A DNA stretch of 39,015 bases from a virus. Taxonomy: Duplodnaviria; Heunggongvirae; Uroviricota; Caudoviricetes. Of the stretch, positions 7,160 to 29,771 are shown piece by piece (position 1 is the stretch's first letter; each line of letters opens with the position of its first letter). The stretch is from the IMG/VR virus record IMGVR_UViG_2740892269_000012; one strand, 5' to 3'. Position numbers and translations under genes: made by a program. The notes beneath the pieces were generated by a model that worked only from the letters and a program-made list of their open reading frames with translations, did no database searches and had not been told where the DNA came from.

Positions 7160-7311
7160 CTTACTGTGTGCTTCTCCAACCATCGGCGCGCACCAGTTTC
7201 GGTTTTAAATGTTTTGCTTTTGGTATACGTCATGGCAGTGAACGTTCCATCCTGGTTGGGGAACACGCCGCACACCAGGGATTCGTTGTTGCCGAGGTCG
7301 ATTTTTTGCAT
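7156..7311 (-). CDS. ydaF: YdaF, 51 aa (below ORF-track cutoff)
   Basis: Hand-translated MQKIDLGNNESLVCGVFPNQDGTFTAMTYTKSKTFKTETGARRWLEKHTVS; convergent with sieB, 4-nt overlap. Confidence 0.7.
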   Translation of the reverse strand: MQKIDLGNNESLVCGVFPNQDGTFTAMTYTKSKTFKTETGARRWLEKHTVS

Positions 7312-7321
7312 TTTGCGAATC

Positions 7322-7456
7322 TCACATCTTGTTGCTGTGTATAGCGACTTCTGCCTGCCAGAGATCCCAGTCGTTGCTGCGTAAAGCCTGCACAGCCTGG
7401 TTGTAAGTGATACCGCAACAATCCATCAAATACTGAACTACTTCGTAATGCACCAT
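7322..7456 (-). CDS. ydaG: YdaG, 44 aa
   Basis: ATG at 7456 inside ORF 7322..7504 (MVHYEVVQYLMDCCGITYNQAVQALRSNDWDLWQAEVAIHSNKM) with AAGGGGAGAG SD. Confidence 0.7.
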   Translation of the reverse strand: MVHYEVVQYLMDCCGITYNQAVQALRSNDWDLWQAEVAIHSNKM

Positions 7457-7628
7457 CTTATCTCTCCCCTTAACGCCGGGTGGCGGAACTGAAACCTGCT
7501 GCACTGCAAAATCTGAACCCTGCCGTCATGTTCATACGCCTCGGGCTGGCTACTTAACCCCTGACCACTGCCTGGTAACTCGAAGTATTGCCCTGCGTTC
7601 TGTGGGGCGGGGTGGGTTGGTAGGTATA

Positions 7629-7672
7629 TAATGTACTTTGTGTTCATTGATGTAAAGTACTATAAGTACATT
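7629..7672. promoter_or_regulatory. Putative left operator/promoter (OL/PL-like): inverted ATGTACTT / AAGTACAT repeats flanking a central AGTACT palindrome
   Basis: ATGTACTT at 7631-7638 and its exact reverse complement AAGTACAT at 7664-7671; AGTACT at 7656-7661; lies just beyond the 3' end of the repressor gene at the head of the leftward early operon; the same 7-mer recurs in the repressor/cro intergenic region. Confidence 0.4.
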
Positions 7673-7746
7673 TTGTGTGTAAAAAAATGAGATGGGATAA
7701 AGTGAAGCACAAACCCGGAGGGGGACGCTACCGGATTTATGCTGGT

Positions 7747-8166
7747 TTAAGAGGCTTTTTGTTTTTTCTTTCGTGCTAGCTCTTCGTAAATTGCATTGTA
7801 CTTCTGTTTTTTCTCCTCAAGAGTTTTTAAAAGTTCATCTGTCTCACTGTCAGGGAGCTCGTCCAGAAGGTCAATGATGATTTTTTGTCTTGGATTTAAC
7901 TCCTGATAGAAACGTACCTGTCCACTTTCTTCTGTATCCTCTCCCAAAAGATAGGTTGGTGTTGTTCCAATGAGTGTTGCTAATTCCCTTAATTTCTCTC
8001 GGCGAGGAATTGTTTCGCCATTAAACCATTTGCTAACCGCTTTTGGTGTTAATTTCATTCGACGGGCAATTTCTGCCTGCCTTCCATGTTGTTCATAACC
8101 AGCGTTTTCACAGGCTAGCGCAAGCCTACTGGCGAACTCTTTACGCGCTTTATCTTCATGAACCAT
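7747..8166 (-). CDS. CI-like prophage repressor (XRE-family HTH) at the racR position; alternative GTG start at 8184
   Basis: ORF 7747..8184; HTH segment QAEIARRMKLTPKAVSKWFNGETIP; divergent from a Cro-like gene; ATG at 8166 (MVHEDKARKEF...). I could not confirm identity to K-12 RacR, so no symbol is given. Confidence 0.72.
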   Translation of the reverse strand: MVHEDKARKEFASRLALACENAGYEQHGRQAEIARRMKLTPKAVSKWFNGETIPRREKLRELATLIGTTPTYLLGEDTEESGQVRFYQELNPRQKIIIDLLDELPDSETDELLKTLEEKKQKYNAIYEELARKKKQKAS

Positions 8167-8184
8167 AAGTTCAATGATATTCAC

Positions 8185-8245
8185 TCTTGAATGTACTGTC
8201 AGTTCTGTTATAGCATGTACTCAAAGTTCACATTGTGAGGGTGAT
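8185..8245. promoter_or_regulatory. Putative right operator region (OR, PRM/PR-like) between divergent repressor and cro-like genes
   Basis: Two direct copies of ATGTACT (8191-8197 and 8215-8221) in a 61-bp divergent intergenic region; same motif as the OL-like site. Confidence 0.45.
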
Positions 8246-8500
8246 ATGAACCAGAAAACACTTGAAGATGTAATCAAAACTGTTCGCGTTTCTGTTGTGG
8301 CCGACGTTTGTGGTGTCAGCCAAAGAGCAATCTACAAATGGATGGATAACGGAAAATTGCCTCGCACAGAATATACCGGCGAAACAAATTACGCTGAAAA
8401 AATCGCTCATGCATCAAACGGATTATTTTCTGCTGATGTAATTTTAACTATTGGCAGAAATAAAACTACTACGAAAAAGCTGATGGGAGTTGATTCATGA
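8246..8500 (+). CDS. Cro-like small HTH DNA-binding protein (ydaS position), 84 aa
   Basis: ATG at 8246 with GAGGGTG SD; HTH-like segment VADVCGVSQRAIYKWMDNGKLP; divergent from the repressor; stop overlaps ydaT start (ATGA). Sequence differs from the K-12 YdaS I recall. Confidence 0.7.
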   Translation: MNQKTLEDVIKTVRVSVVADVCGVSQRAIYKWMDNGKLPRTEYTGETNYAEKIAHASNGLFSADVILTIGRNKTTTKKLMGVDS

Positions 8501-8919
8501 AAATCAAGCATGAGCACATCGAGTCAGTGTTGTTAGCCCTGGCAGCCGAAAAAGGGCAGGCATGGGTAGCCAATGCCATTACTGAAGAATATCTGCGCCA
8601 GGGGGGCGGCGAATTGCCCCTGGTACCAGGCAAGGACTGGAATAATCAGCAGAATATCTATCACCGTTGGTTGAAAGGTGAAACGAAAACGCAAAGAGAA
8701 AAAATTCAGAAGCTGATCCCAGCAATTCTGGCAATCCTTCCGCGCGAGCTGCGTCACCGACTCTGCATCTTCGATACCCTGGAACGCCGTGCATTACTGG
8801 CGGCGCAGGAAGCGTTAAGTACGGCAATTGATGCGCATGATGATGCAGTCCAAGCCGTTTACCGGAAAGCGCATTTCAGCGGCGGCGGGTCTTCCGACGA
8901 TTCTGTCATTGTTCATTAA
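8497..8919 (+). CDS. ydaT: YdaT (CII-like regulator/toxin of the Rac immunity region), 140 aa
   Basis: MKIKHEHIESVLLALAAEKGQAWVANAITEEYLRQGGGELPLVPGKDWNNQQ... matches my recollection of Rac YdaT; follows the cro-like gene. Confidence 0.8.
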   Translation: MKIKHEHIESVLLALAAEKGQAWVANAITEEYLRQGGGELPLVPGKDWNNQQNIYHRWLKGETKTQREKIQKLIPAILAILPRELRHRLCIFDTLERRALLAAQEALSTAIDAHDDAVQAVYRKAHFSGGGSSDDSVIVH

Positions 8920-8931
8920 GCAAAAGTTTCC

Positions 8932-9789
8932 ATGCTGTTTGTGCTTATTCTAAGCCACCGGGCAGCATCATACGGGGCAATTATGGCCGCATTACCATAC
9001 ATGCAACTGTACATAGCTGATTACCTGGCTGACACCATGCATTTGTCAGCAGAGGAGCATGGTGCGTATTTGTTGCTGATGTTCAATTACTGGCAAACAG
9101 GAAAGCCAATACCTAAAAACAGGCTGGCAAAAATTGCCCGTCTGACTAACGAGCGATGGGCTGATGTTGAACCATCCTTGCAGGAGTTTTTTTGCGATAA
9201 CGGCGAGGAATGGGTGCATCTTCGGATTGAGGAAGATCTGGCATCAGTCAGGGAAAAATTAACCAAAAAATCAGCCGCAGGAAAAGCATCTGTTCAGGCC
9301 AGAAGAAGCAGAAAGGAAGCAGATGTTCAAACAAAACAAGAGAGAAATTTAACAGGTGTTCAAACAGATGTTGAAGTGGTGTTTGAACATGATGTCAACA
9401 CAAAGGCAACTAATAAAGATACAGATAAAGATCTAAAAACAGATCCCCCCCTAAATCCCCCCCGGGGGAATCGAGGTGTCAAAAAGTTTGACCCTCTGGA
9501 TATTGCTTTGCCGAACTGGATTTCTGTCTCGCTTTGGCGTGAGTGGGTTGAATTTCGCCAGGCATTGCGAAAACCGATTCGAACGGAGCAGGGCGCTAAC
9601 GGGGCGATACGGGAGCTGGAAAAATTCCGCCAGCAGGGTTTTTCACCTGAGCAGGTGATTCGACACAGCATCGCCAATGAATACCAGGGCTTGTTCGCGC
9701 CGAAAGGTGTTCGACCTGAGACGTTACTCCGACAGGTTAACACCGTCTCGTTACCGGATAGTGCGATCCCGCCAGGCTTCAGGGGGTAA
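8932..9789 (+). CDS. ydaU: YdaU (DUF1376) replication-associated protein, 285 aa
   Basis: 285-aa ORF, same length as Rac YdaU; positioned as the replication initiator partner of the DnaC-like gene. Confidence 0.78.
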   Translation: MLFVLILSHRAASYGAIMAALPYMQLYIADYLADTMHLSAEEHGAYLLLMFNYWQTGKPIPKNRLAKIARLTNERWADVEPSLQEFFCDNGEEWVHLRIEEDLASVREKLTKKSAAGKASVQARRSRKEADVQTKQERNLTGVQTDVEVVFEHDVNTKATNKDTDKDLKTDPPLNPPRGNRGVKKFDPLDIALPNWISVSLWREWVEFRQALRKPIRTEQGANGAIRELEKFRQQGFSPEQVIRHSIANEYQGLFAPKGVRPETLLRQVNTVSLPDSAIPPGFRG

Positions 9790-9795
9790 CTGACC

Positions 9796-10542
9796 ATGAA
9801 AAATATTGCGACAGGCGACGTTCTTGAACGTATCCGCAGACTGGCCCCGTCACATGTAACCGCGCCATTCAAGACGGTAGCGGAGTGGCGCGAGTGGCAA
9901 CTTTCCGAAGGCCAGAAACGTTGTGAGGAGATCAACCGTCAGAATCGTCAGTTGCGGGTGGAAAAAATTCTGAATCGCTCTGGCATCCAGCCATTGCACC
10001 GCAAATGCTCGTTTTCGAATTACCAGGTGCAGAACGAAGCGCAGCGATACGCGTTGAGTCAGGCGAAATCCATCGCTGATGAACTGATGACCGGGTGTAC
10101 AAATTTTGCGTTCAGCGGAAAACCTGGTACCGGGAAGAACCACTTAGCGGCAGCTATCGGGAATCGCCTGCTGAAAGACGGTCAGACAGTGATTGTGGTT
10201 ACCGTGGCTGATGTTATGAGTGCCCTGCACGCCAGCTATGACGATGGGCAGTCAGGCGAAAAATTTTTGCGGGAACTATGCGAAGTGGATCTGCTGGTTC
10301 TTGATGAAATTGGCATTCAGCGCGAGACGAAAAACGAGCAGGTGGTGCTGCACCAGATTGTTGATCGCCGGACAGCGTCGATGCGCAGCGTGGGGATGCT
10401 GACAAACCTGAACTATGAGGCCATGAAAACATTGCTCGGCGAGCGGATTATGGATCGCATGACCATGAACGGCGGGCGATGGGTGAATTTTAACTGGGAG
10501 AGCTGGCGTCCGAATGTCGTCCAGCCAGGAATTGAGAAGTAA
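9796..10542 (+). CDS. ydaV: DnaC/IstB-like AAA+ helicase loader, 248 aa
   Basis: Walker [16 protein letters not shown] and Walker [10 protein letters not shown] motifs; 248 aa as in Rac YdaV. Confidence 0.9.
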
Positions 10543-10564
10543 TTTTTACCGGGAGGAAATTTTT

Positions 10565-11326
10565 ATGGAGACTGTTTTTGACGCACTGAAAGCAATGGGA
10601 AAAGCCACATCCATAGAACTTGCTGCGCGACTTGATATCAGTCGTGAAGAAGTGCTGAACGAACTATGGGAACTGAAAAAAGCTGGTTTCGTTGATAAAA
10701 GCGCGTACACCTGGCGTGTGGCTGATAACAACGTTCAGCAGGAACAGCCAATGCAGGCAGAACTGCCGGAAGAAACCACCACGGCAACTGTAGTGAAAAT
10801 CTCAGAGTGCGATTTAACCGCGACGATTGAACAACGCGGACCACAAACGGCGGATGAACTGGCTACGCTGTTCGGTACAACATCCCGCAAAGTTGCTTCA
10901 ACGCTGGCAATGGCAATCAGCAAAGGACGCCTGATTCGCGTAAACCAGAACAGTAAATTTCGTTACTGCATGCCGGGCGATAATTTACCAGCAGAGCCGA
11001 AAGCTGCATCGGTAGCGGAAACTGATGGTAAAGCCTTTCCTCAGCCAGCCGGTGTTGCGTTACCAGTACAGGAAGCGGCAACACAGGAAGATATTAAAAC
11101 AGAAACTGTGGCGGACATTGTGCAGTCGCTGCCATCGTTTACTGAAACGCAAGCGGATGACCTAGTTTTACCATCGCTGCATATGGCAAACCGCGAACTG
11201 CGTCGGGCGAAAAATCATGTCCAGAAGTGGGAGCGAGTCTGCGCCGCGCTGCGGGAGCTGAACAAGCACCGGGATATTGTCCGACAGATTGTCGATTCCT
11301 CCAGTCGTATTGTGTCGGAAAAGTGA
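10565..11326 (+). CDS. DUF1627-like phage protein, full-length counterpart of the K-12 ydaW remnant
   Basis: ATG at 10565 ([43 protein letters not shown]...) with N-terminal winged-helix-like segment; ORF 10514..11326. Confidence 0.65.
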
Positions 11327-11341
11327 TTGCCGGAGGCGCTT

Positions 11342-11758
11342 ATGGCAAAAGTTTTTACACAGGAAGAGCGTGAAAAAATTAAGGAGCAGGTTGTTGAGTT
11401 GGTACGCCAGAGTGGGCGCGAGACGTTAAGGCAACTGGAGGCCAAGACAGGTGCGACAAGATATCTGATGAGCATTCTTGCCAGAGAGTTGGTTGCCAGT
11501 GGCGATGTATACAACTCTGGCTATGGGTTATTCCCGTCTGAACAGGCTCGTAAGGATTGGAAAAACGCCCGCAAAAAACTATCCAGGGCAAAGGTGAAAA
11601 AAACGGTTGTGGTTGATCCTGACCTTATCTGGTCATTACCAGACGGAGAAATACGCCGCTATGACAGGCGTCAGAACATAATCTGTCGCGAGTGCCGGAA
11701 GAGTGAAGTTATGAAACGTGTACTGGCATTTTATCAAGGAAATCTTCGGTATTTATAG
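11342..11758 (+). CDS. Hypothetical phage protein, 138 aa
   Basis: ATG at 11342 with GGAGG SD; contains a CxxC pair (CRECRK); no family recognised. Confidence 0.55.
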   Translation: MAKVFTQEEREKIKEQVVELVRQSGRETLRQLEAKTGATRYLMSILARELVASGDVYNSGYGLFPSEQARKDWKNARKKLSRAKVKKTVVVDPDLIWSLPDGEIRRYDRRQNIICRECRKSEVMKRVLAFYQGNLRYL

Positions 11759-11896
11759 ACGTTACTAGATCAAAGAGCATTAGTTCATATGTAAATTGAC
11801 ATTTTTCTGGCACAGGGGAGAGCTAGCGTGGTTGTCCGCTTTGTGCCAATAGCGGACATTGCTGGCTCATGGTATGTTAGTTTAAGGAGGCAGGTT

Positions 11897-12919
11897 ATGC
11901 CCTGTATTTCGCTGTGGTATAATAGTTGCGCAATTGATACAAGGGAGCGTTACATCGTGAAAATTGTTTTCGAGGTTAATGGAAAGAAAGTTCCACTAAA
12001 ATCTTTAAAATACATAAGCAAAAAAGATCAACTCGAAGTAATGAAAAACTGGTTCTTTGAAAACTTTGAAGATCCGGCAAATGCTTGTCCGTATGAAAGT
12101 AGAGAAGGTGGCTATGCTTACATATATGGCGGGCCGTATGATGCGAGCGAAGAACTACAATCCATCTTCGGTCAATATGTTAAATCTGAGTATATTGAGG
12201 AATTAGTAGATGAATTACAAACACAATGTTTTGACTGGTCTGGAAACTCAAATAATATAGATGATTGGTACGATGATGATATCTACGACGCTGTAACGTC
12301 TTCCGGTAATCCGTATTTAAAATTCATTGATAATATCGATAAAATAAAAAAACTTGCAAAAGATAAAACTGAACAACAGCAAAAAAACCACTTGCTTAGT
12401 TTGCTCTACACGAATGTTATTACAGCTTTGGAAACGCTTTATGTTGAGCTATTCATTAATTCTATAGAGAAAGATGATGTCTACATAGCCAATTGTATAG
12501 AAAAAGGTAAGACTGAATTTAAAGTAAGCAAAGATATTGCTGCGTTGCCTTTCAAGGGTGAACCCATCGAGAAAATTAGGGGAGAGCTAATCAGGTCAAT
12601 CAAGGAACACTTGATCAGTGCAAGCTGGCATAGCACTAAAAAGGTAATCGACCGCTATGAAGCTACATTCGATATAAAAGTACAAAAAGACTGTCCGATA
12701 GAAGCTATTGAATTGGCAACCCTCAATCGAAATCACTTAGTGCATCGTGGTGGAAAGGATAAAGAAGGGAACCTCGTAGTGATTACAGACCAGGATCTTG
12801 AAACGCTGATTGAAAATGCATCGAACCTGGCAATTATGCTCTACAACAGTTTAAATGTAGCAACGAATAAAACCACCATTTTGCAACCAGATGACAAACC
12901 GTTCATTCATGAATTTTAA
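11897..12919 (+). CDS. Unknown protein A of an AT-rich two-gene accessory cassette, 340 aa; candidate HEPN-like R-x4-H motif (RNHLVH)
   Basis: ATG at 11897 preceded by AAGGAGG at ideal spacing; strongly AT-rich relative to flanks; Asn/Lys/Ile/Glu/Asp-rich; no family recognised by eye. Confidence 0.7.
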   Translation: MPCISLWYNSCAIDTRERYIVKIVFEVNGKKVPLKSLKYISKKDQLEVMKNWFFENFEDPANACPYESREGGYAYIYGGPYDASEELQSIFGQYVKSEYIEELVDELQTQCFDWSGNSNNIDDWYDDDIYDAVTSSGNPYLKFIDNIDKIKKLAKDKTEQQQKNHLLSLLYTNVITALETLYVELFINSIEKDDVYIANCIEKGKTEFKVSKDIAALPFKGEPIEKIRGELIRSIKEHLISASWHSTKKVIDRYEATFDIKVQKDCPIEAIELATLNRNHLVHRGGKDKEGNLVVITDQDLETLIENASNLAIMLYNSLNVATNKTTILQPDDKPFIHEF

Positions 12920-12934
12920 TAGCGCAGGTCATAC

Positions 12935-13936
12935 ATGGATATTCGCACACGAAAGACAAAATTTTTAGAGTCGTTAGATTCAACTGAAGTGATACGCAAA
13001 GCAGTAAGTCTCGCTATAGATTGCATTATTGATAATCATAATAGTAATGAAGATACCCCCTTAGTTATTACCAGCTATGATGATCTCTGTAGAATCCAGG
13101 TGCTAAATTATGTACAGGAGTTTTGCGAAGCTGCATTCCCTGATATGGATGAATATTACTTTAGTCCTAACATACTTCGCATCAACGGCAAGACTAGTGA
13201 AGAAGCTTGTATTAACTTAATTAAACTCTTAAGAAGTACAAAAGGCATGCTATTCTGGTCCGATGCCCCATCGTGGTTCGCTAGCCTCCCCGACGGATTA
13301 TTCCATGTTGTTAACATTGATCAAAAAATCGTTACTCGCGGCCTTAATAAGAAAAACTCTAAGCCGACAATAATCAATAAAGATTACAGTGTAGATACAC
13401 TACTATCAGAGCTATTTTTGAATGGCGCACACATGGAGCAACCCAACGTACACAACGTTTCTGAGGGAAACATGAAGTTCTATGATGAATGCCATGCTGG
13501 ATTAATCAGACCAATACCCGCTCCAATAGGCGCGTCATACGATGAAGAGATCACAATTAATTCTCCAGATTGGCAAAAGCTCGCGTGTGTAGCTTTACGC
13601 CGCTATCAGTCGAAGGAATGTCATGACGGAATGCAATGGGATACAACCGATCATGGTTGGACTGATGTAATCGCGTATCCATTCGTCGAAGAAATACAAT
13701 CAATGGATAATAGTGGTTATCGACAATGTTTAGTTGGGCTGGTCACAATAAACAATTCAAATGCAAATTCTCCGTACCTATCTACCGTTTGGATACATCC
13801 ATTTTATCGCAGGAGAGGGTTATTAAGTAAGTTATGGCCAAAATTACAAGAGTTATATGGAAGTAACTTCGAAATTGAGCGACCTAATGAAAATATGAAA
13901 GCATTTCTGAAAAGTGCGAAACACGCAGATTACTAA
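12935..13936 (+). CDS. Unknown protein B of the same cassette, 333 aa; C-terminal GNAT-like acetyltransferase motif
   Basis: Starts 15 bp after protein A on the same strand; C-terminal segment CLVGLVTIN...YLSTVWIHPFYRRRGLLSKLW resembles GNAT motif A (beta strand, then R-x-x-G-x-G/A-like). Confidence 0.72.
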   Translation: MDIRTRKTKFLESLDSTEVIRKAVSLAIDCIIDNHNSNEDTPLVITSYDDLCRIQVLNYVQEFCEAAFPDMDEYYFSPNILRINGKTSEEACINLIKLLRSTKGMLFWSDAPSWFASLPDGLFHVVNIDQKIVTRGLNKKNSKPTIINKDYSVDTLLSELFLNGAHMEQPNVHNVSEGNMKFYDECHAGLIRPIPAPIGASYDEEITINSPDWQKLACVALRRYQSKECHDGMQWDTTDHGWTDVIAYPFVEEIQSMDNSGYRQCLVGLVTINNSNANSPYLSTVWIHPFYRRRGLLSKLWPKLQELYGSNFEIERPNENMKAFLKSAKHADY

Positions 13937-14488
13937 TTTATGAATCAGTCTGTGGAGTTAGGGTTGGTGTGAACAAGTAGGGTAAGAGCCTCAACGTGAT
14001 GCTATGCCGACCTGCTCCCTGAGAATTCACACAGAAGGCTGCTAGCAATGTCTGCAGATCGCTCAAAGCGGACTAAAATGTTGGCTTGTTTCTGACTTAG
14101 AGCATTTAAGGAAGTGCTGGTGGTGACTGGTTGTTGTGTTCCATTTCTACAGAATAAAATCACAGAAACTATACCCAATAGTTGTATTGAATCACTGACG
14201 AGACAGCCTCATATTTATCAGGACTGGTGTGCGTCTAATACAGGGGGTTGTCGTGCTGGTTCTCAAATGTGCGCTGGCTATTGCGGCTGTAATGGCAATT
14301 TATTGTCTTGCTGTTGTTCTTATGGAGCGGCTTTCTGATTGATTACATACTGGCTAGAAAAAAGGTGTTACCTTGGTTTATCTTTGTCCGGCAAGGTGCG
14401 CTCATTAATCTTAAGTAAATTTATTGCTCAAGTATTCAGATTACTTCTTATGGTTGAAGTCTCCTGTCAATGTAGAACCAATATATTT

Positions 14489-14528
14489 ACAAAAATGAGA
14501 CCCGTCGGGGATAGCCCTGCCGGGTCTG
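14489..14528 (-). terminator. Putative rho-independent terminator for the minus-strand gene 14557..14895
   Basis: Minus-strand stem AGACCCG/CGGGTCT (complement of 14498-14527) followed by CATTTTTGT. Confidence 0.4.
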
Positions 14529-14556
14529 ACTGTTAAAGCATTTTTAATATGATCAT

Positions 14557-14895
14557 CTATTTTTTGGTGCTATAGACTTTTTCGCCCGAAAAGTCTGGAG
14601 CGACCCAAAAGTTAATATTAAACTGAGCATCATCGCTTAGTTCAACACGGTGCCAGTATTGTGGTGGGCTTGTTGCAAAAGCGCCAGCATTAATGACTAC
14701 TTTTATCTCCGGTTCAGTAGCATTCTCATCAGTAAAACCATAATATGTTACAGTGCCTTCCATTACGCACAACTGCCCAAAAACACCTGCTGCTGTATTA
14801 TGATGTGTTAATAACGCTGAAGGTACGTTCTCTTTTGTGAAGAACGGAGTTGAGCGTTTGATTACCCAATCTTTAGGAATTCTCTTGTGTGTCAT
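14557..14895 (-). CDS. Small cupin-like hypothetical protein (possibly DUF1971 / tellurite-resistance-related family), 112 aa
   Basis: ATG at 14895 (MTHKRIPKDWVIKRSTPFFTKENVP...) preceded by GGAGGAGGTGG SD; family assignment is from memory and uncertain. Confidence 0.68.
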   Translation of the reverse strand: MTHKRIPKDWVIKRSTPFFTKENVPSALLTHHNTAAGVFGQLCVMEGTVTYYGFTDENATEPEIKVVINAGAFATSPPQYWHRVELSDDAQFNINFWVAPDFSGEKVYSTKK

Positions 14896-14904
14896 AACCA
14901 CCTC

Positions 14905-14939
14905 CTCCAAAACATGCATTAAAAATGCATCTTTTGGAG
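14905..14939. promoter_or_regulatory. Near-perfect 15-bp inverted repeat (CTCCAAAACATGCAT / ATGCATCTTTTGGAG, 5-bp spacer) abutting the SD of the 14557..14895 gene
   Basis: Read directly; 14/15 complementary; in the mRNA the 3' arm GTTTTGGAG runs into the GGAGGAGG SD, so it could be an operator or a translation-control hairpin. Confidence 0.35.
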
Positions 14940-15708
14940 GGTTATGTCAAGCTGTTATGAAACACATAATTGATATGTTGATTAGAGGAGAAGATAGAAT
15001 AAATATGGTTGTTTTTCGTATAACTATTTGTTTTACTTTTAGTTTATGCATTCTGTGTGTTAGGAATAAGTTATTAAAGTTTAATCAAAAAATCTCGATG
15101 TAGTCCACATAGATTACTGTTACTGAACCTTATTGTGTGTATTAGTTGTGTTCTGAAATTTCAGCTTAATTATTTATGATGTATTTTTTAACGATAAATA
15201 TTTTCCCAGGATACCTTTACTGTGTATATAAATAAATTATATACGCATAAATAATGTAAAGGCGTCCTTTTAGATATATCTTATCAAATGTTAATGACTT
15301 GAGTGGGAAATATGATTCCAGCAACTTATCATGTGGCTACTTTATAAAAATAATGCCCATATAAAACAACAAGCGAAAAGGATTACGGATAAAAAAGGAG
15401 CGAGATGTGCGAACTTGTTATTTTCCATGTTTAACCACCTTAAATAATTGATGATGACGGGATGATTGCATCTGTAATGCTTTTATTGAAATGTTATGAT
15501 AAAAAAGAACTTTTGCATAACATTAAAATGTAATTTATCTAATCGTTTTTAATAATAAGTGTCGTATTTCTATCCTTGTACCAGCTATTTGATATGTAGT
15601 GTTTGTTCATGCTATGTGGGGCTTTACACCATAGCCAGTTTATTTATACTTTATTCGTCAGCCTGAACAACTGGCATCTGCTGCGCTGCGCCATCGAGAG
15701 ATTGAGAA

Positions 15709-16308
15709 ATGGCGCATATACAACTGGTCAAACAAACCTCTTCTGGTTTACTTCTCCCGGCGACGCCGGAGAGTTGCGATTTTCTGCATCAAATCAAAAT
15801 AGGTGAGTGGATACACGCAGACTTTAAGCGTGTGCGTAACTACGCATTCCACAAGCGTTTTTTCAAACTCCTGCAACTGGGATTCGATTACTGGACTCCG
15901 GTCGGTGGGGCGATCACGCCTCGCGAACGAGAACTGCTGTCTGGTTTCGTTGATTACCTGTGCGAATCAGTTGGTCGGGAACACACGCCAGCCCTGAGTG
16001 ATGCCGCAGAGCAATACCTTAACACCGTTGCGACTCGTAGAACCCGGGATACGGCGTTGCTAAAGTCGTTTGAGGCTTTCCGCGAGTGGGTAACCATTCA
16101 GGCCGGATTTTACACCGAGCATATTTATCCGGACGGTAGCCGTGGGCGTCGGGCAAAATCCATCGCTTTTGCGAATATGGACGAAGTCGAGTTTCAGCAG
16201 GTTTATAAATCTGTACTGAATGTGCTGTGGAACTGGATTCTGTTCCGTAAATTCTCCTCTCAGGAGGAAGTTGAAAATGTGGCCGCACAACTACTGGAGT
16301 TTGCGTAA
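15709..16308 (+). CDS. DUF1367 family phage protein (nin-region type), 199 aa
   Basis: Sequence character and position upstream of YbcO-like and Q genes; stop overlaps next start (TAATG). Confidence 0.75.
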   Translation: MAHIQLVKQTSSGLLLPATPESCDFLHQIKIGEWIHADFKRVRNYAFHKRFFKLLQLGFDYWTPVGGAITPRERELLSGFVDYLCESVGREHTPALSDAAEQYLNTVATRRTRDTALLKSFEAFREWVTIQAGFYTEHIYPDGSRGRRAKSIAFANMDEVEFQQVYKSVLNVLWNWILFRKFSSQEEVENVAAQLLEFA

Positions 16309-17592: not shown

Positions 17593-18122
17593 GCTGGTTT
17601 ATTGTATGCCAAATGATTATTAAAAAGGTTGTGTTAATAACAAGATCCGAAATAATATGCCTGCATATTTTTATCTTGCTTATATTCTGCATATTGTGCA
17701 TAGCAGGCTCATCCCTGCAATCAAAACTGTATGATGAGTATTTTTTGTTTTCCTTTTTTCCAGTCATCTGATGATGACCTGCTTCTTTTTAATCCGGATC
17801 GACATCAGTTTTTTAAGATAATTCCTGCGAGTTATATGCATAAATGCCACAAACTCCGCATTTTATGTGGTTGGGAGTTGCCGGGCGCGCAGTGAGTTTG
17901 CTAAGAAAACTCCTGCATGGTGAATCCCCCTGTGCGGTGGGGTGATACCATTAACCTTTTCTGTCGCCGACAGGTATCACGAACATTTTGTTCACCGGGA
18001 GGCACCCGGCACCATGCACTTCAATAGATTCTCTCCACATTATGGATATTCTTTCAGAATATCCCACGCAGACTTTGTGTAAATGTTAACAAATGTGCGT
18101 TTTATTTGATCTGATTCGCTGT

Positions 18123-28003: not shown

Positions 28004-29099
28004 ACGGCTGCGTGATGAATCAATTGCTCATGCAGTCTGGATATCCCGCTATAGCACTGGCGTGGCTGCCAGAATGGTGAAAATACTGAATGACAGCGAT
28101 GCGGAACTTACTGCTCGCCTGCTGATAGCACTGGACAGCCTCGATCCAGGTAGTTTTACCGTTAAGCGCCTGGAGTCACTTCTGGCGAGCGTCAGAGAGG
28201 TTAACCGCACTGCTATTAACAGCATGTTTACCAGTCTCTCCGGAGAGCTGAACGAGCTGGCAATTTATGAGGCTGGTTATCAGTTAAGTCTGTTTGATTC
28301 TATGCTACCTGATTTTGTTGCTGATGTTCACCCTCTGGTTGGTATCTCTCCTGATGCACTTTATGCCGCTGCAATGGCGCGACCATTCCAGGGACGACTG
28401 CTCAGTGAGTGGGCCTCAGATCTTGAGGCGGATCGGCTCAGACGCATAACAAATACAGTGCGTCAGGGTTTTTTGCTGGGGGATACCAATGAGCAGATCG
28501 CAAGAAAAATTCGGGGACATGTCAGTAAGGGATTTCAGGATGGTGCATTGCAGATGAGCCGGGCTAATGCGGCCAGCATTGCAAAAACAGCGGTTGGACA
28601 TCTTGCTGCTACTGCCCGTGAGAGTTTTGCCAGCGCGAATAATGATTTGATTAAGGGTAAGCAATGGTTATCAACGCTTGATAATCGTACTACGCCACAA
28701 TGTCGAATCAGGGATCGCCTCAAATATACGCTGAATAATAAACCTGTAGGTCACAGCGTGCCTTATTTGCAGGGGCCGGGAAAAATTCATTTCTGCTGCC
28801 GCTCAACGGAAACGTTCATTCTGAAATCAGCGAAGGAACTGGGTATTGATGTTCGCGATATTTCCCCGGCTGAGCGGGCCAGCATGGATGGCGTGGTGGC
28901 CGGAGATACAACCTACAGGGAATGGTTTTTGCGTCAGCCTTACACCAGACAAAAACAGATTGTGGGGGAAAGCCGAGCAAAGCTGATTCGGGATGGTGGT
29001 ATGTCGCCAGATGAATTTTACACCGATAAAGGCGAATGGCTGACGCTGAAGCAGCTCCGTGAGCGTGATGCACAGGTATTCAGAAAAGCAGGGATTTAA
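27984..29099 (+). CDS. Head morphogenesis / minor head protein (SPP1 gp7 / Mu F-like), 371 aa
   Basis: Position after portal; sequence character of the gp7/Mu-F family (recollection). Confidence 0.75.
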   Translation: MMQTVNERLRDESIAHAVWISRYSTGVAARMVKILNDSDAELTARLLIALDSLDPGSFTVKRLESLLASVREVNRTAINSMFTSLSGELNELAIYEAGYQLSLFDSMLPDFVADVHPLVGISPDALYAAAMARPFQGRLLSEWASDLEADRLRRITNTVRQGFLLGDTNEQIARKIRGHVSKGFQDGALQMSRANAASIAKTAVGHLAATARESFASANNDLIKGKQWLSTLDNRTTPQCRIRDRLKYTLNNKPVGHSVPYLQGPGKIHFCCRSTETFILKSAKELGIDVRDISPAERASMDGVVAGDTTYREWFLRQPYTRQKQIVGESRAKLIRDGGMSPDEFYTDKGEWLTLKQLRERDAQVFRKAGI

Positions 29100-29118
29100 A
29101 TAAATCATTTATTACAAC

Positions 29119-29145
29119 AGGCTACCTTCGGGTGGCCTTTTTTAT
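29119..29145 (+). terminator. Rho-independent terminator after the head-morphogenesis gene
   Basis: Stem AGGCTACC / GGTGGCCT (one G-U) with TTCG tetraloop, then TTTTTTATT. Confidence 0.5.
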
Positions 29146-29182
29146 TGCTGCGATCCGGATGGTGAGCAGCGTAACTGTCGGA

Positions 29183-29438
29183 NNNNNNNNNNNNNNNNNN
29201 NNNNNNNNNNNNNNNNNNNNNNNNNNNNNNNNNNNNNNNNNNNNNNNNNNNNNNNNNNNNNNNNNNNNNNNNNNNNNNNNNNNNNNNNNNNNNNNNNNNN
29301 NNNNNNNNNNNNNNNNNNNNNNNNNNNNNNNNNNNNNNNNNNNNNNNNNNNNNNNNNNNNNNNNNNNNNNNNNNNNNNNNNNNNNNNNNNNNNNNNNNNN
29401 NNNNNNNNNNNNNNNNNNNNNNNNNNNNNNNNNNNNNN
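29183..29438. other. Assembly gap: 256 consecutive N
   Basis: Run of n characters; true length and content unknown. Confidence 0.99.
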
Positions 29439-29771
29439 ATTGCGATCCCGGCAGATTTATTACAAGCCCGCTTCGGGCAGGCATTCAAAGTGGAAGAAGG
29501 GAGGATCGTTGCTTATGACGCTTCCGGCAACAAAATTTATTCCCGCGCGAAGCCTGGCGAACTGGCGCAGTTTGATGAGGCGCTGGAGTTCCTTGTCGAA
29601 AATTACCCTCAGAAAGACTACATCCTGAAAGCCAGTGGCAACAATGGCGGCGGCTCCCGTCCGACACAGCATGATATTGGTCAGAAAACGATGAAACGCT
29701 CTGCTTTTGATGCACTGGATGTTGCAGGTAAGCAAAACGCATTGAAAGACGGTATCACAATCGTTGATTAA
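29439..29771 (+). CDS. 3' part of a head-module gene (possibly scaffolding protein) whose 5' end lies in the gap
   Basis: Frame is open from the gap edge to the TAA ending at 29771 (…VEEGRIVAYDASGNKIYSRAKPGELAQFDEALEFLVENYPQ...); located just upstream of the major capsid gene. Confidence 0.35.
   Translation: MAIPADLLQARFGQAFKVEEGRIVAYDASGNKIYSRAKPGELAQFDEALEFLVENYPQKDYILKASGNNGGGSRPTQHDIGQKTMKRSAFDALDVAGKQNALKDGITIVD

Follow-up and report, generated by a model that had tools for sequence, protein, structure and literature searches.

The window analysed here, i.e., the whole 39,015-nt stretch of IMG/VR virus record IMGVR_UViG_2740892269_000012, contains a cassette of two genes, A (11897/11957..12919, with two candidate starts) and B (12935..13936), which the ORF list places on the + strand, with the stop codon of A and the ATG of B 15 bp apart (TAA-TAGCGCAGGTCATAC-ATG). 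The features of this cassette, with both genes named after the published system DS-33, are as follows.

11915..11923, + strand: putative extended -10 promoter element TGgTATAAT, read from sequence
11941..11947, + strand: Shine-Dalgarno-like AAGGGAG, 9 nt upstream of GTG 11957
11957..12919, + strand: gene A (DS-33A), 320 aa, HEPN/RES-NTD1 (about aa 1-100) and HEPN (about aa 118-308)
12728..12748, + strand: HEPN motif codons R258-N-H-L-V-H263-R264, invariant; R258A published as defence-null
12920..12934, + strand: A-B intergenic spacer, 15 bp, same length in nearly all paired loci
12935..13936, + strand: gene B (DS-33B), 333 aa, N-terminal alpha/beta domain (about aa 1-165) and divergent GNAT (about aa 176-333)
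13790..13837, + strand: GNAT motif-A-like segment WIHPFYRRRGLLSKLW, aa 286-301 of B
13937..14010, + strand: conserved 3' tail of the cassette; in a DNA alignment of six contexts it is conserved, after which the contexts diverge

The window sequence confirmed two same-strand ORFs 15 bp apart in an AT-rich block, as described in an earlier note made from the sequence alone; GC content is 0.36 in gene A and 0.39 in gene B, as compared to 0.50 in the upstream replication genes (8932-11758) and 0.45 in the whole window. On its left the cassette adjoins a DUF977 gene (11327..11758; Pfam E 3e-31); on its right flank is a DUF1367 gene (15709..16308; Pfam E 6e-98). While the earlier note had placed a cupin-like gene, i.e., the DUF1971 gene at 14557..14895 (Pfam E 2.6e-26), and AT-rich DNA in one island with the cassette, conservation across contexts stops about 35-110 bp past the stop codon of B, and strain S88 carries hokD where the window has the DUF1971 gene. 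This gene and the AT-rich spacer are therefore neighbouring cargo outside the cassette. A search of 11760-15700 against Rfam identified no hok/sok-type or other RNA.

With regard to the start of gene A, sequence comparison indicates that translation most likely begins at GTG 11957 (320 aa) rather than at ATG 11897 (340 aa), the start given in the earlier note, because (i) A homologues from other genera all begin at the GTG position, (ii) in Serratia there is a 1-nt indel between both candidate starts and the ORF opens just 5 codons upstream of the GTG, (iii) the Aeromonas cassette has neither the ATG nor the AAGGAGG, (iv) the extended -10 at 11915-11923 lies 3' of ATG 11897, and (v) the PGAP gene call for A is 963 nt. 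The extended -10 is located within a block that is conserved in E. coli, Serratia, and Aeromonas and that starts approximately 60 bp upstream of the GTG; the Shine-Dalgarno-like element is conserved in part, reading AAGGGAG in the window but AATGGAG in Serratia and AAGGAGA in Aeromonas. A promoter and terminator scan yielded signals at background level only, with the two-hexamer promoter scan missing the extended -10 because of its poor -35. The corrected gene model for A is thus almost certainly one of 320 aa, with its own putative extended -10 promoter.

Protein A of the window is identical to DS-33A (320/320), and protein B is identical to DS-33B at 332/333 positions, the sole difference being P289L (P289, the consensus residue, in the window and L289 in the tested allele); in addition, the published DS-33 CDS span of 1980 nt equals 963+15+1002 nt of the window. 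Given these matches and the same spacing, the cassette is the published anti-phage defence operon DS-33 and is already known. The term "undescribed" used in the earlier note thus has to be dropped, as the same proteins had been cloned, shown to be protective, and named by DeWeirdt et al. (DefensePredictor, Science 2026, PMC13092281; bioRxiv 10.1101/2025.01.08.631726, January 2025; Tables S6-S8). The main text of that paper does not discuss DS-33, the data being in supplementary tables; searches of the full-text literature found nothing on the locus, and the match surfaced only through these tables. DS-40 (D295, 311 aa), which was considered as a solo A homologue, proved unrelated; its annotation includes a transmembrane segment.

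In MG1655 carrying DS-33 constructs with the native promoter on a low-copy plasmid, the operon was reported to confer 2-6 logs of protection against T7, T3, Bas67, and Bas26 (PMC13092281); wild-type -log(EOP) values in two replicates were 3.8/2.6 for T7, 3.3/2.4 for T3, 4.0/2.0 for Bas67, and 5.0/5.9 for Bas26. Mutants were assayed with a panel of five phages; -log(EOP) was about 0 when the HEPN gene was deleted and 0-0.8 with R258A, while deletion of the GNAT gene gave 4.8/4.3 for T7, 3.3/3.3 for T3, 4.0/3.3 for Bas67, and 5.0/4.9 for Bas26 (PMC13092281). A is necessary for the published protection, is sufficient without B, and needs the HEPN arginine R258. The operon structure and the co-inheritance of both genes within their clade would fit an obligate two-component system that needs both HEPN and GNAT, as the earlier note had implied, but this is very improbable, as deletion of the GNAT gene left defence against all five tested phages intact or slightly stronger and as most relatives of either gene are solo. 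That A and B represent ordinary phage housekeeping or lysogeny genes without a conflict function is hardly credible; no support for this explanation was found, both being annotated as "hypothetical protein" (NCBIfam and PHROGs scans provided no functional name for either) and belonging to PHROGs families of unknown function, and it is contradicted by the published protection phenotype (PMC13092281), by absence of the cassette among 50,697 GenBank phage records, by the restriction of its proteins to 205-209 of 5426 E. coli genomes, and by their presence on unrelated mobile elements.

Protein A has the alpha-helical HEPN fold as well as the conserved R-x4-6-H motif of the HEPN superfamily. The HEPN-like R-x4-H pointed out in the earlier note is indeed present as RNHLVH; R258, H263, and R264 of the extended motif R-x4-H-R do not vary among 66 homologues with identities as low as 26%, and R258A abolishes defence. 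Among Pfam families, PF18870 (HEPN_RES_NTD1) matched aa 26-92 of the window protein with 22.2 bits (E 1.9e-4), below the gathering threshold of 27.4, and matched 44/66 A homologues at E<=1e-3, mostly just under threshold; PF18735 (HEPN_RiboL-PSP; gathering threshold 28.4 bits) did not match the window protein and matched 26/66 homologues at E<=1e-3 (best 7e-11; 36.1 bits for P0101 and 28.5 bits for P0060). NTD1 is fused to a PIN domain in one relative (P0116), and NTD1 fusions to RES and ABC modules have been described (PMC3710099). PDB sequence searches with profiles of A and B and with the GNAT half alone gave chance-level matches only, and a profile-profile comparison of A and B identified no domain in common. 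PADLOC v2.0.0 models yielded nothing meaningful for A or B (best E 0.01) and, among the 66 A homologues, three weak RTasHEPN matches and one weak PDC-S26 match.

Protein B has a GNAT fold, from which it is predicted to be acetyltransferase-like; for its N-terminal domain (about aa 1-165), no structural or family match was found. PF00583 matched aa 264-311 of B weakly (19.9 bits; threshold 20.7 bits) and matched 13/53 B homologues at E<=1e-3. The C-terminal segment likened to GNAT motif A in the earlier note is a motif-A region of this fold, and motif A (R/Q-x-x-G-x-G/A) reads R-R-R-G-L-L in B, with R292 invariant and the last G/A substituted. W286, H288, P289, and R292 are invariant across 53 homologues, and residue 289 is Pro in 84/84 B loci examined. 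The likening of B to tRNA-acetylating toxins was not supported, as B showed no sequence match to solved GNAT toxins (at E<=1-10), solo B loci have no recurrent partner, and B is a two-domain protein of 333 aa. Stand-alone homologues of the GNAT half (~160 aa) exist, including one in a phage contig directly 3' of a DUF3987 gene.

The cassette is located directly 3' of the DUF977 gene in a Rac-like E. coli prophage, and in other E. coli the same slot is filled by a type II R-M system, a DUF262 protein, QueH, or a hydrolase, which supports the earlier view that the cassette is defence cargo that entered a variable prophage position by horizontal transfer. Among complete E. coli genomes, A (at least 95% identity) was found in 209 and B in 209. 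Where a B homologue shares at least 73% identity, A almost always precedes it by 15 bp, and the divergence of the two genes is correlated; the 15-bp spacer was found in E. coli, Serratia, Aeromonas, and metagenomic loci with identities as low as 78% for A and 74% for B (two loci have 14 bp). By contrast, B homologues below 62% identity are all solo, as are three loci at 86% and one at 75%; among 80 species-representative A loci, B is present at only 2, with at least 98% identity (plus S88 locus L001), and neither B nor a recurrent neighbour accompanies the A homologues at 54-76% identity or about 75 others that are more distant. When the genes around the 80 A loci and around 19 solo B loci were clustered, no recurrent partner emerged. 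Solo A homologues adjoin integrases, a restriction endonuclease, and an ABC-three-component system; solo B settings include an ICE, a Mu-like prophage, a TerB/BrxC/Mrr/HEPN_Toprim_N island, and polA-adjacent islets; and an Aeromonas A-B pair is located beside SIR2/cREC genes on a relaxase-bearing element. On the question raised in the earlier note of whether the two genes co-occur, A and B are paired and syntenic, travelling as a 15-bp-spaced unit, within one clade only, while distant relatives of each are solo and lie in defence islands or on mobile elements.

That A and B have long been inherited together at a fixed 15 bp suggests that B matters under some condition. That B is dispensable is secure because it is based on a deletion; that B is without any effect is an insecure statement, as the tested allele carries P289L at a family-invariant Pro. 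It is conceivable, if doubtful, that a real function of B was hidden by this rare allele and the five-phage panel and that B, in the consensus form present in the window, either tunes or restrains the HEPN protein via acetylation or represents a separate acetyltransferase-based defence or counter-defence module. With regard to the latter, B may be independent cargo that joined the A operon in one clade only, whether as a defence protein in its own right, as an acetyltransferase with a counter-defence or host-modifying role, or as a factor that alters the phage range of A; we consider this possible but somewhat unlikely. The consistently solo occurrence of relatives below 62% identity on varied elements, the existence of stand-alone GNAT-half homologues, and the mutated invariant residue in the tested allele favour independence of B, while its low DefensePredictor score (1.08, versus 9.45 for A; PMC13092281), the lack of protection against five phages by the A-deleted construct, which still carries B, and the lack of a family or PADLOC match pointing to a known role argue against it.

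By analogy with MNT proteins that AMPylate HEPN toxins, B could also be a negative regulator, i.e., an antitoxin-like enzyme that would acetylate or bind A, although we consider this unlikely. Without B, protection was higher by 1.0 and 1.7 logs for T7 in the two replicates and, in one replicate, by 0.9 logs for T3 and 1.3 logs for Bas67; tight coupling with a conserved spacer and the presence of enzymatically neutralised HEPN toxins (8xdj, 7ae2) among the structural neighbours of A are also consistent with a regulatory role. However, these gains are small, were measured in spot assays, and may stem from deletion-caused changes in expression; Bas26 showed the opposite direction in one replicate, the B-deleted strain was viable and assayable, and the A homologues at 54-76% identity and the more distant ones live without B.

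Overall, we consider it highly probable that the cassette is the DS-33 defence operon, present as cargo in the variable slot that follows DUF977, with A as HEPN effector and B as accessory. In the lysogen, A would be inactive and expressed from its own putative extended -10 promoter, and NTD1, which elsewhere is fused to RES, PIN, and ABC modules, may be the sensing or regulatory part of A. Based on the HEPN superfamily, infection would lead to a HEPN dimer with a composite R-x4-H active site that may cleave RNA (tRNA or mRNA), which in turn would shut down translation and the production of phage, in the manner of HepS, RnlA/LsoA, or AbiD/F-type systems; nuclease activity of A and an abortive outcome are thus predicted by analogy. 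B, presumably co-transcribed 15 bp 3' of A and dispensable for protection against the tested phages, would be an accessory module that became linked to A in one clade, possibly as a mild negative modulator of A or as a module with its own function. While the discovery value is small, as the operon has already been validated and the HEPN architecture was predicted in 2013, viewing the defence as residing in a HEPN module of one gene, with a GNAT gene coupled to it in one enterobacterial/Aeromonas clade, explains the published persistence of defence after GNAT deletion. The role of the GNAT partner has been probed only through an allele mutated at an invariant residue and is cheaply testable, and the slot 3' of the DUF977 gene in Rac/Qin-like prophages represents a cargo hotspot that can be mined.

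Among known systems, the GNAT toxins TacT, AtaT, ItaT, and KacT share the GNAT fold with B; TacAT/AtaRT-type modules, however, consist of a small single-domain toxin and an adjacent antitoxin, unlike the larger two-domain B. HEPN-MNT pairs share the HEPN fold with A and show enzymatic control of HEPN toxins, but no MNT gene is found next to A, for which the sole partner is the GNAT-type B and which is tolerated alone, at solo loci without a recurrent neighbour. PD-T4-2 (Vassallo et al. 2022, PMC9519451) includes a RiboL-PSP-HEPN protein, PD-T4-2_B, which DS-33A remotely matched by HHblits in the DefensePredictor study (probability 96.1, coverage 0.55; PMC13092281); the likeness is limited to the HEPN domain, and no PADLOC PD-T4-2 model matched A or B. 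HepS from the Salmonella Gifsy-1 prophage (PMC13043305) resembles A distantly, through the HEPN fold only; unlike DS-33, it has neither NTD1 nor a GNAT partner, and its trigger is a siphovirus tail tip, with a known target, whereas DS-33 restricts T7 and T3. The same NTD1 plus HEPN architecture was computationally predicted as a conflict-system toxin by Anantharaman et al. 2013 (PMC3710099), whose families (HEPN/RES-NTD1-fused HEPN, RiboL-PSP-HEPN, called distantly related to AbiD/AbiF, and MAE_28990/MAE_18760) are predictions without experiments; members of the A family match PF18870 and PF18735, and no GNAT partner is described there, the terms "acetyltransferase" and "GNAT" being absent from that paper. 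Finally, DS-33 itself is the same locus with the same 15-bp spacing, and it has been validated as defensive, with R258 essential.

The window holds a Rac-like lambdoid prophage, with a left-end integrase, replication genes of the ydaT/ydaU/ydaV type and, after these, nin-type and late genes; its left arm is Rac-like, as marked by a match to the RalA sRNA. Between the DUF977 and DUF1367 genes lie two co-oriented genes, here called A and B, which are separated by 15 bp:

1557-1735, + strand, RalA sRNA, antitoxin of the RalR/RalA type I toxin-antitoxin pair (Rfam, 225 bits)
11327..11758, DUF977 gene, left neighbour of the A-B cassette
11915-11923, putative extended -10 element (TGgTATAAT)
11957..12919, gene A
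12935..13936, gene B
14557-14895, - strand, DUF1971 (TehB N-terminal-like) gene
15709..16308, DUF1367 gene, right-hand flank
17885-18071, + strand, STnc100 sRNA match in the nin/Q region (Rfam, 86.6 bits, above gathering)

GC content is 0.36 in A and 0.39 in B, lower than in the replication genes upstream (0.50) and in the window overall (0.45); with both co-oriented ORFs present, the AT-rich two-gene block described in an earlier note is therefore real. In the late-gene region, the ORFs at 29001-29500 (GC 0.23) are all short and overlap one another, on both strands; this very AT-rich patch may be another moron or insertion.

While the earlier note proposed an undescribed defence-type system, the pair is already known as DS-33. 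WP_014639476 led to the locus in Table S6 of the DefensePredictor supplement (PMC13092281; Science 2026, with a preprint in January 2025), where WP_014639476.1 and WP_000354965.1 (assembly GCF_003334765.1) are listed under the working id 'GNAT', flagged defensive = TRUE and named DS-33. Compared with the Table S8 sequences, A is identical (320/320 residues) and B is identical except for P289L. DS-33 was assayed in MG1655 against 24 phages, from a low-copy plasmid into which transcription units had been cloned together with their native promoter regions (PMC13092281).

Plating on DS-33 strains, as -log(EOP) in two replicates (Table S7, PMC13092281)
T7: wild type 3.78/2.60; GNAT deleted 4.78/4.30
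T3: wild type 3.30/2.40; GNAT deleted 3.30/3.30
Bas67: wild type 4.0/1.98; GNAT deleted 4.0/3.30
Bas26: wild type 5.0/5.9; GNAT deleted 5.0/4.9
T5: wild type 0.77/0.08; GNAT deleted 1.73/0.55
HEPN deleted: -0.48 to 0.54 throughout
R258A: -0.3 to 0.78 throughout

The HEPN gene (A) is thus necessary for protection, sufficient without B, and dependent on the arginine of its R-x4-H motif; B is dispensable for the protection tested, and in functional terms a single HEPN gene makes up the DS-33 defence, the GNAT gene being an accessory. Without B, protection rose slightly: for T7 this was seen in both replicates, for T3 and Bas67 in one. The tested DS-33B allele (WP_000354965.1) encodes Leu at residue 289 (window 13799-13801), which is Pro in the window, in 84/84 B loci and in all 53 aligned homologues; judged from this substitution, the published construct may have carried a compromised GNAT. 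Given Leu289 and the slight gain in protection upon deletion, B may yet have a role. DS-33 does not appear in the main-text discussion of the paper, which gives neither a trigger, a target, nor a role for B (PMC13092281).

Two start codons were considered for A, i.e., ATG 11897, preceded by AAGGAGG and preferred in the earlier note (340 aa), and GTG 11957 (320 aa). Five lines of evidence favour the latter, and A was therefore taken as 11957..12919: (i) in other genera, each of the 26 aligned homologues starts with the residue that GTG 11957 encodes; (ii) Serratia grimesii carries a 1-nt indel between the two candidates, its ORF starting just five codons 5' of the GTG; (iii) the Aeromonas cassette lacks both the ATG and AAGGAGG; (iv) the extended -10 element lies downstream of ATG 11897, within the conserved block, as conservation between cassettes starts approx. 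60 bp 5' of GTG 11957; and (v) PGAP annotates A as 963 nt.

A alone falls under Pfam thresholds (HEPN_RES_NTD1, 22 bits, E 2e-4); of 66 A homologues, by contrast, PF18870 is matched by 44 and PF18735 (RiboL-PSP-HEPN; best E 7e-11) by 26. The NTD1 + HEPN architecture was described computationally in 2013, along with NTD1 fusions to RES and ABC modules, and RiboL-PSP-HEPN is a distant relative of AbiD/AbiF (PMC3710099). One homologue of the NTD1 region (P0116) has a PIN domain in place of the HEPN. For B, exhaustive profile searching yielded no more than about ten full-length clusters (50% identity), as well as stand-alone proteins of ~160 aa that match positions ~180-328 only; B therefore consists of a GNAT module to which an N-terminal alpha/beta domain (aa 1-165) has been added, and no structural or family match was found for this domain. 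B gave no sequence match to solved GNATs, including tRNA-acetylating toxins. The domain guesses made from sequence alone, a HEPN-like A and a GNAT-like end of B, were good ones. One stand-alone GNAT-half homologue (160 aa; L099, 4929-5411) is on a phage-like contig with ERF, DUF669 and terminase genes; it overlaps the end of a DUF3987 gene and hence also lies between replication and late genes.

Among 5426 complete E. coli genomes, A and B were each found in 209 (A at >=95% identity), and 20 further genomes had a divergent A (60-80% DNA identity) but no B; the cassette was found in 0/50,697 GenBank phage records. Viral and metagenomic contigs supplied 69 further B loci; in these, B at >=73% identity was nearly always preceded by A, almost always with the 15-bp spacing, and divergence was correlated (e.g., B 78%/A 84%, B 93%/A 97%); three loci at 86% B identity were exceptions, and B below 62% identity was solo in every case. 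Conversely, B accompanied A homologues at only two of 80 species-representative loci, both at >=98% identity. No recurrent neighbour was found for A homologues at these 80 loci or for solo B loci, the latter lying in an ICE, a Mu-like prophage, polA-adjacent islets and a TerB/BrxC/Mrr/HEPN_Toprim_N island. The A homologues that lack B in E. coli adjoin integrases, one being next to an ABC-three-component system and another next to a restriction endonuclease. Linkage and solo loci together indicate two self-contained modules, A and B, which in one enterobacterial/Aeromonas clade were joined into an operon and inherited together; the dispensability of B fits this modular distribution. In E. coli L26 (L092, 3577-8919), an A homologue without B (72% identity) is flanked by a tRNA-Gly-adjacent integrase on one side and a DUF2326/ABC-three-component system on the other; the ABC-three-component annotation is similar to the DS-30 (ABC3) entry of PMC13092281. 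In Aeromonas caviae, a relaxase-bearing element carries the pair, adjoining SIR2 and cREC (cREC_REC) genes (L084-L087, about 7200-9300), in what looks like a small defence island. A 3.3-kb contig labelled as a Collinsella sp. (actinobacterial) MAG (L002) has a B that is 100% identical to the E. coli cassette and an A that differs in its start codon only; contamination during binning is the probable explanation.

The position after DUF977 carries other genes in other E. coli prophages, namely QueH, a DUF262 protein together with a TPR protein (strain SE11), an alpha/beta hydrolase, or QueH with a cytosine methyltransferase and an NgoMIV-type endonuclease (OkiPb01684). This variety, which includes known defence genes, confirms that the slot is a cargo hotspot, one open to mining. 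The 1.8 kb at 13937-15708 are non-coding apart from the DUF1971 gene (GC 0.37 overall, 0.29 at 15001-15500). This gene had been counted as part of the cassette's island; however, conserved cassette DNA stops about 35-110 bp 3' of the B stop, and S88 carries hokD at the equivalent place, so DUF1971 represents separate cargo in a second, independent slot.

With regard to mechanism, infection-triggered RNA cleavage by a HEPN dimer is likely, by analogy with the HEPN superfamily and with single-protein prophage HEPN systems, HepS (PMC13043305) among them: NTD1 of A would serve as a sensing or regulatory domain, and infection would trigger the HEPN dimer of A to cleave RNA.
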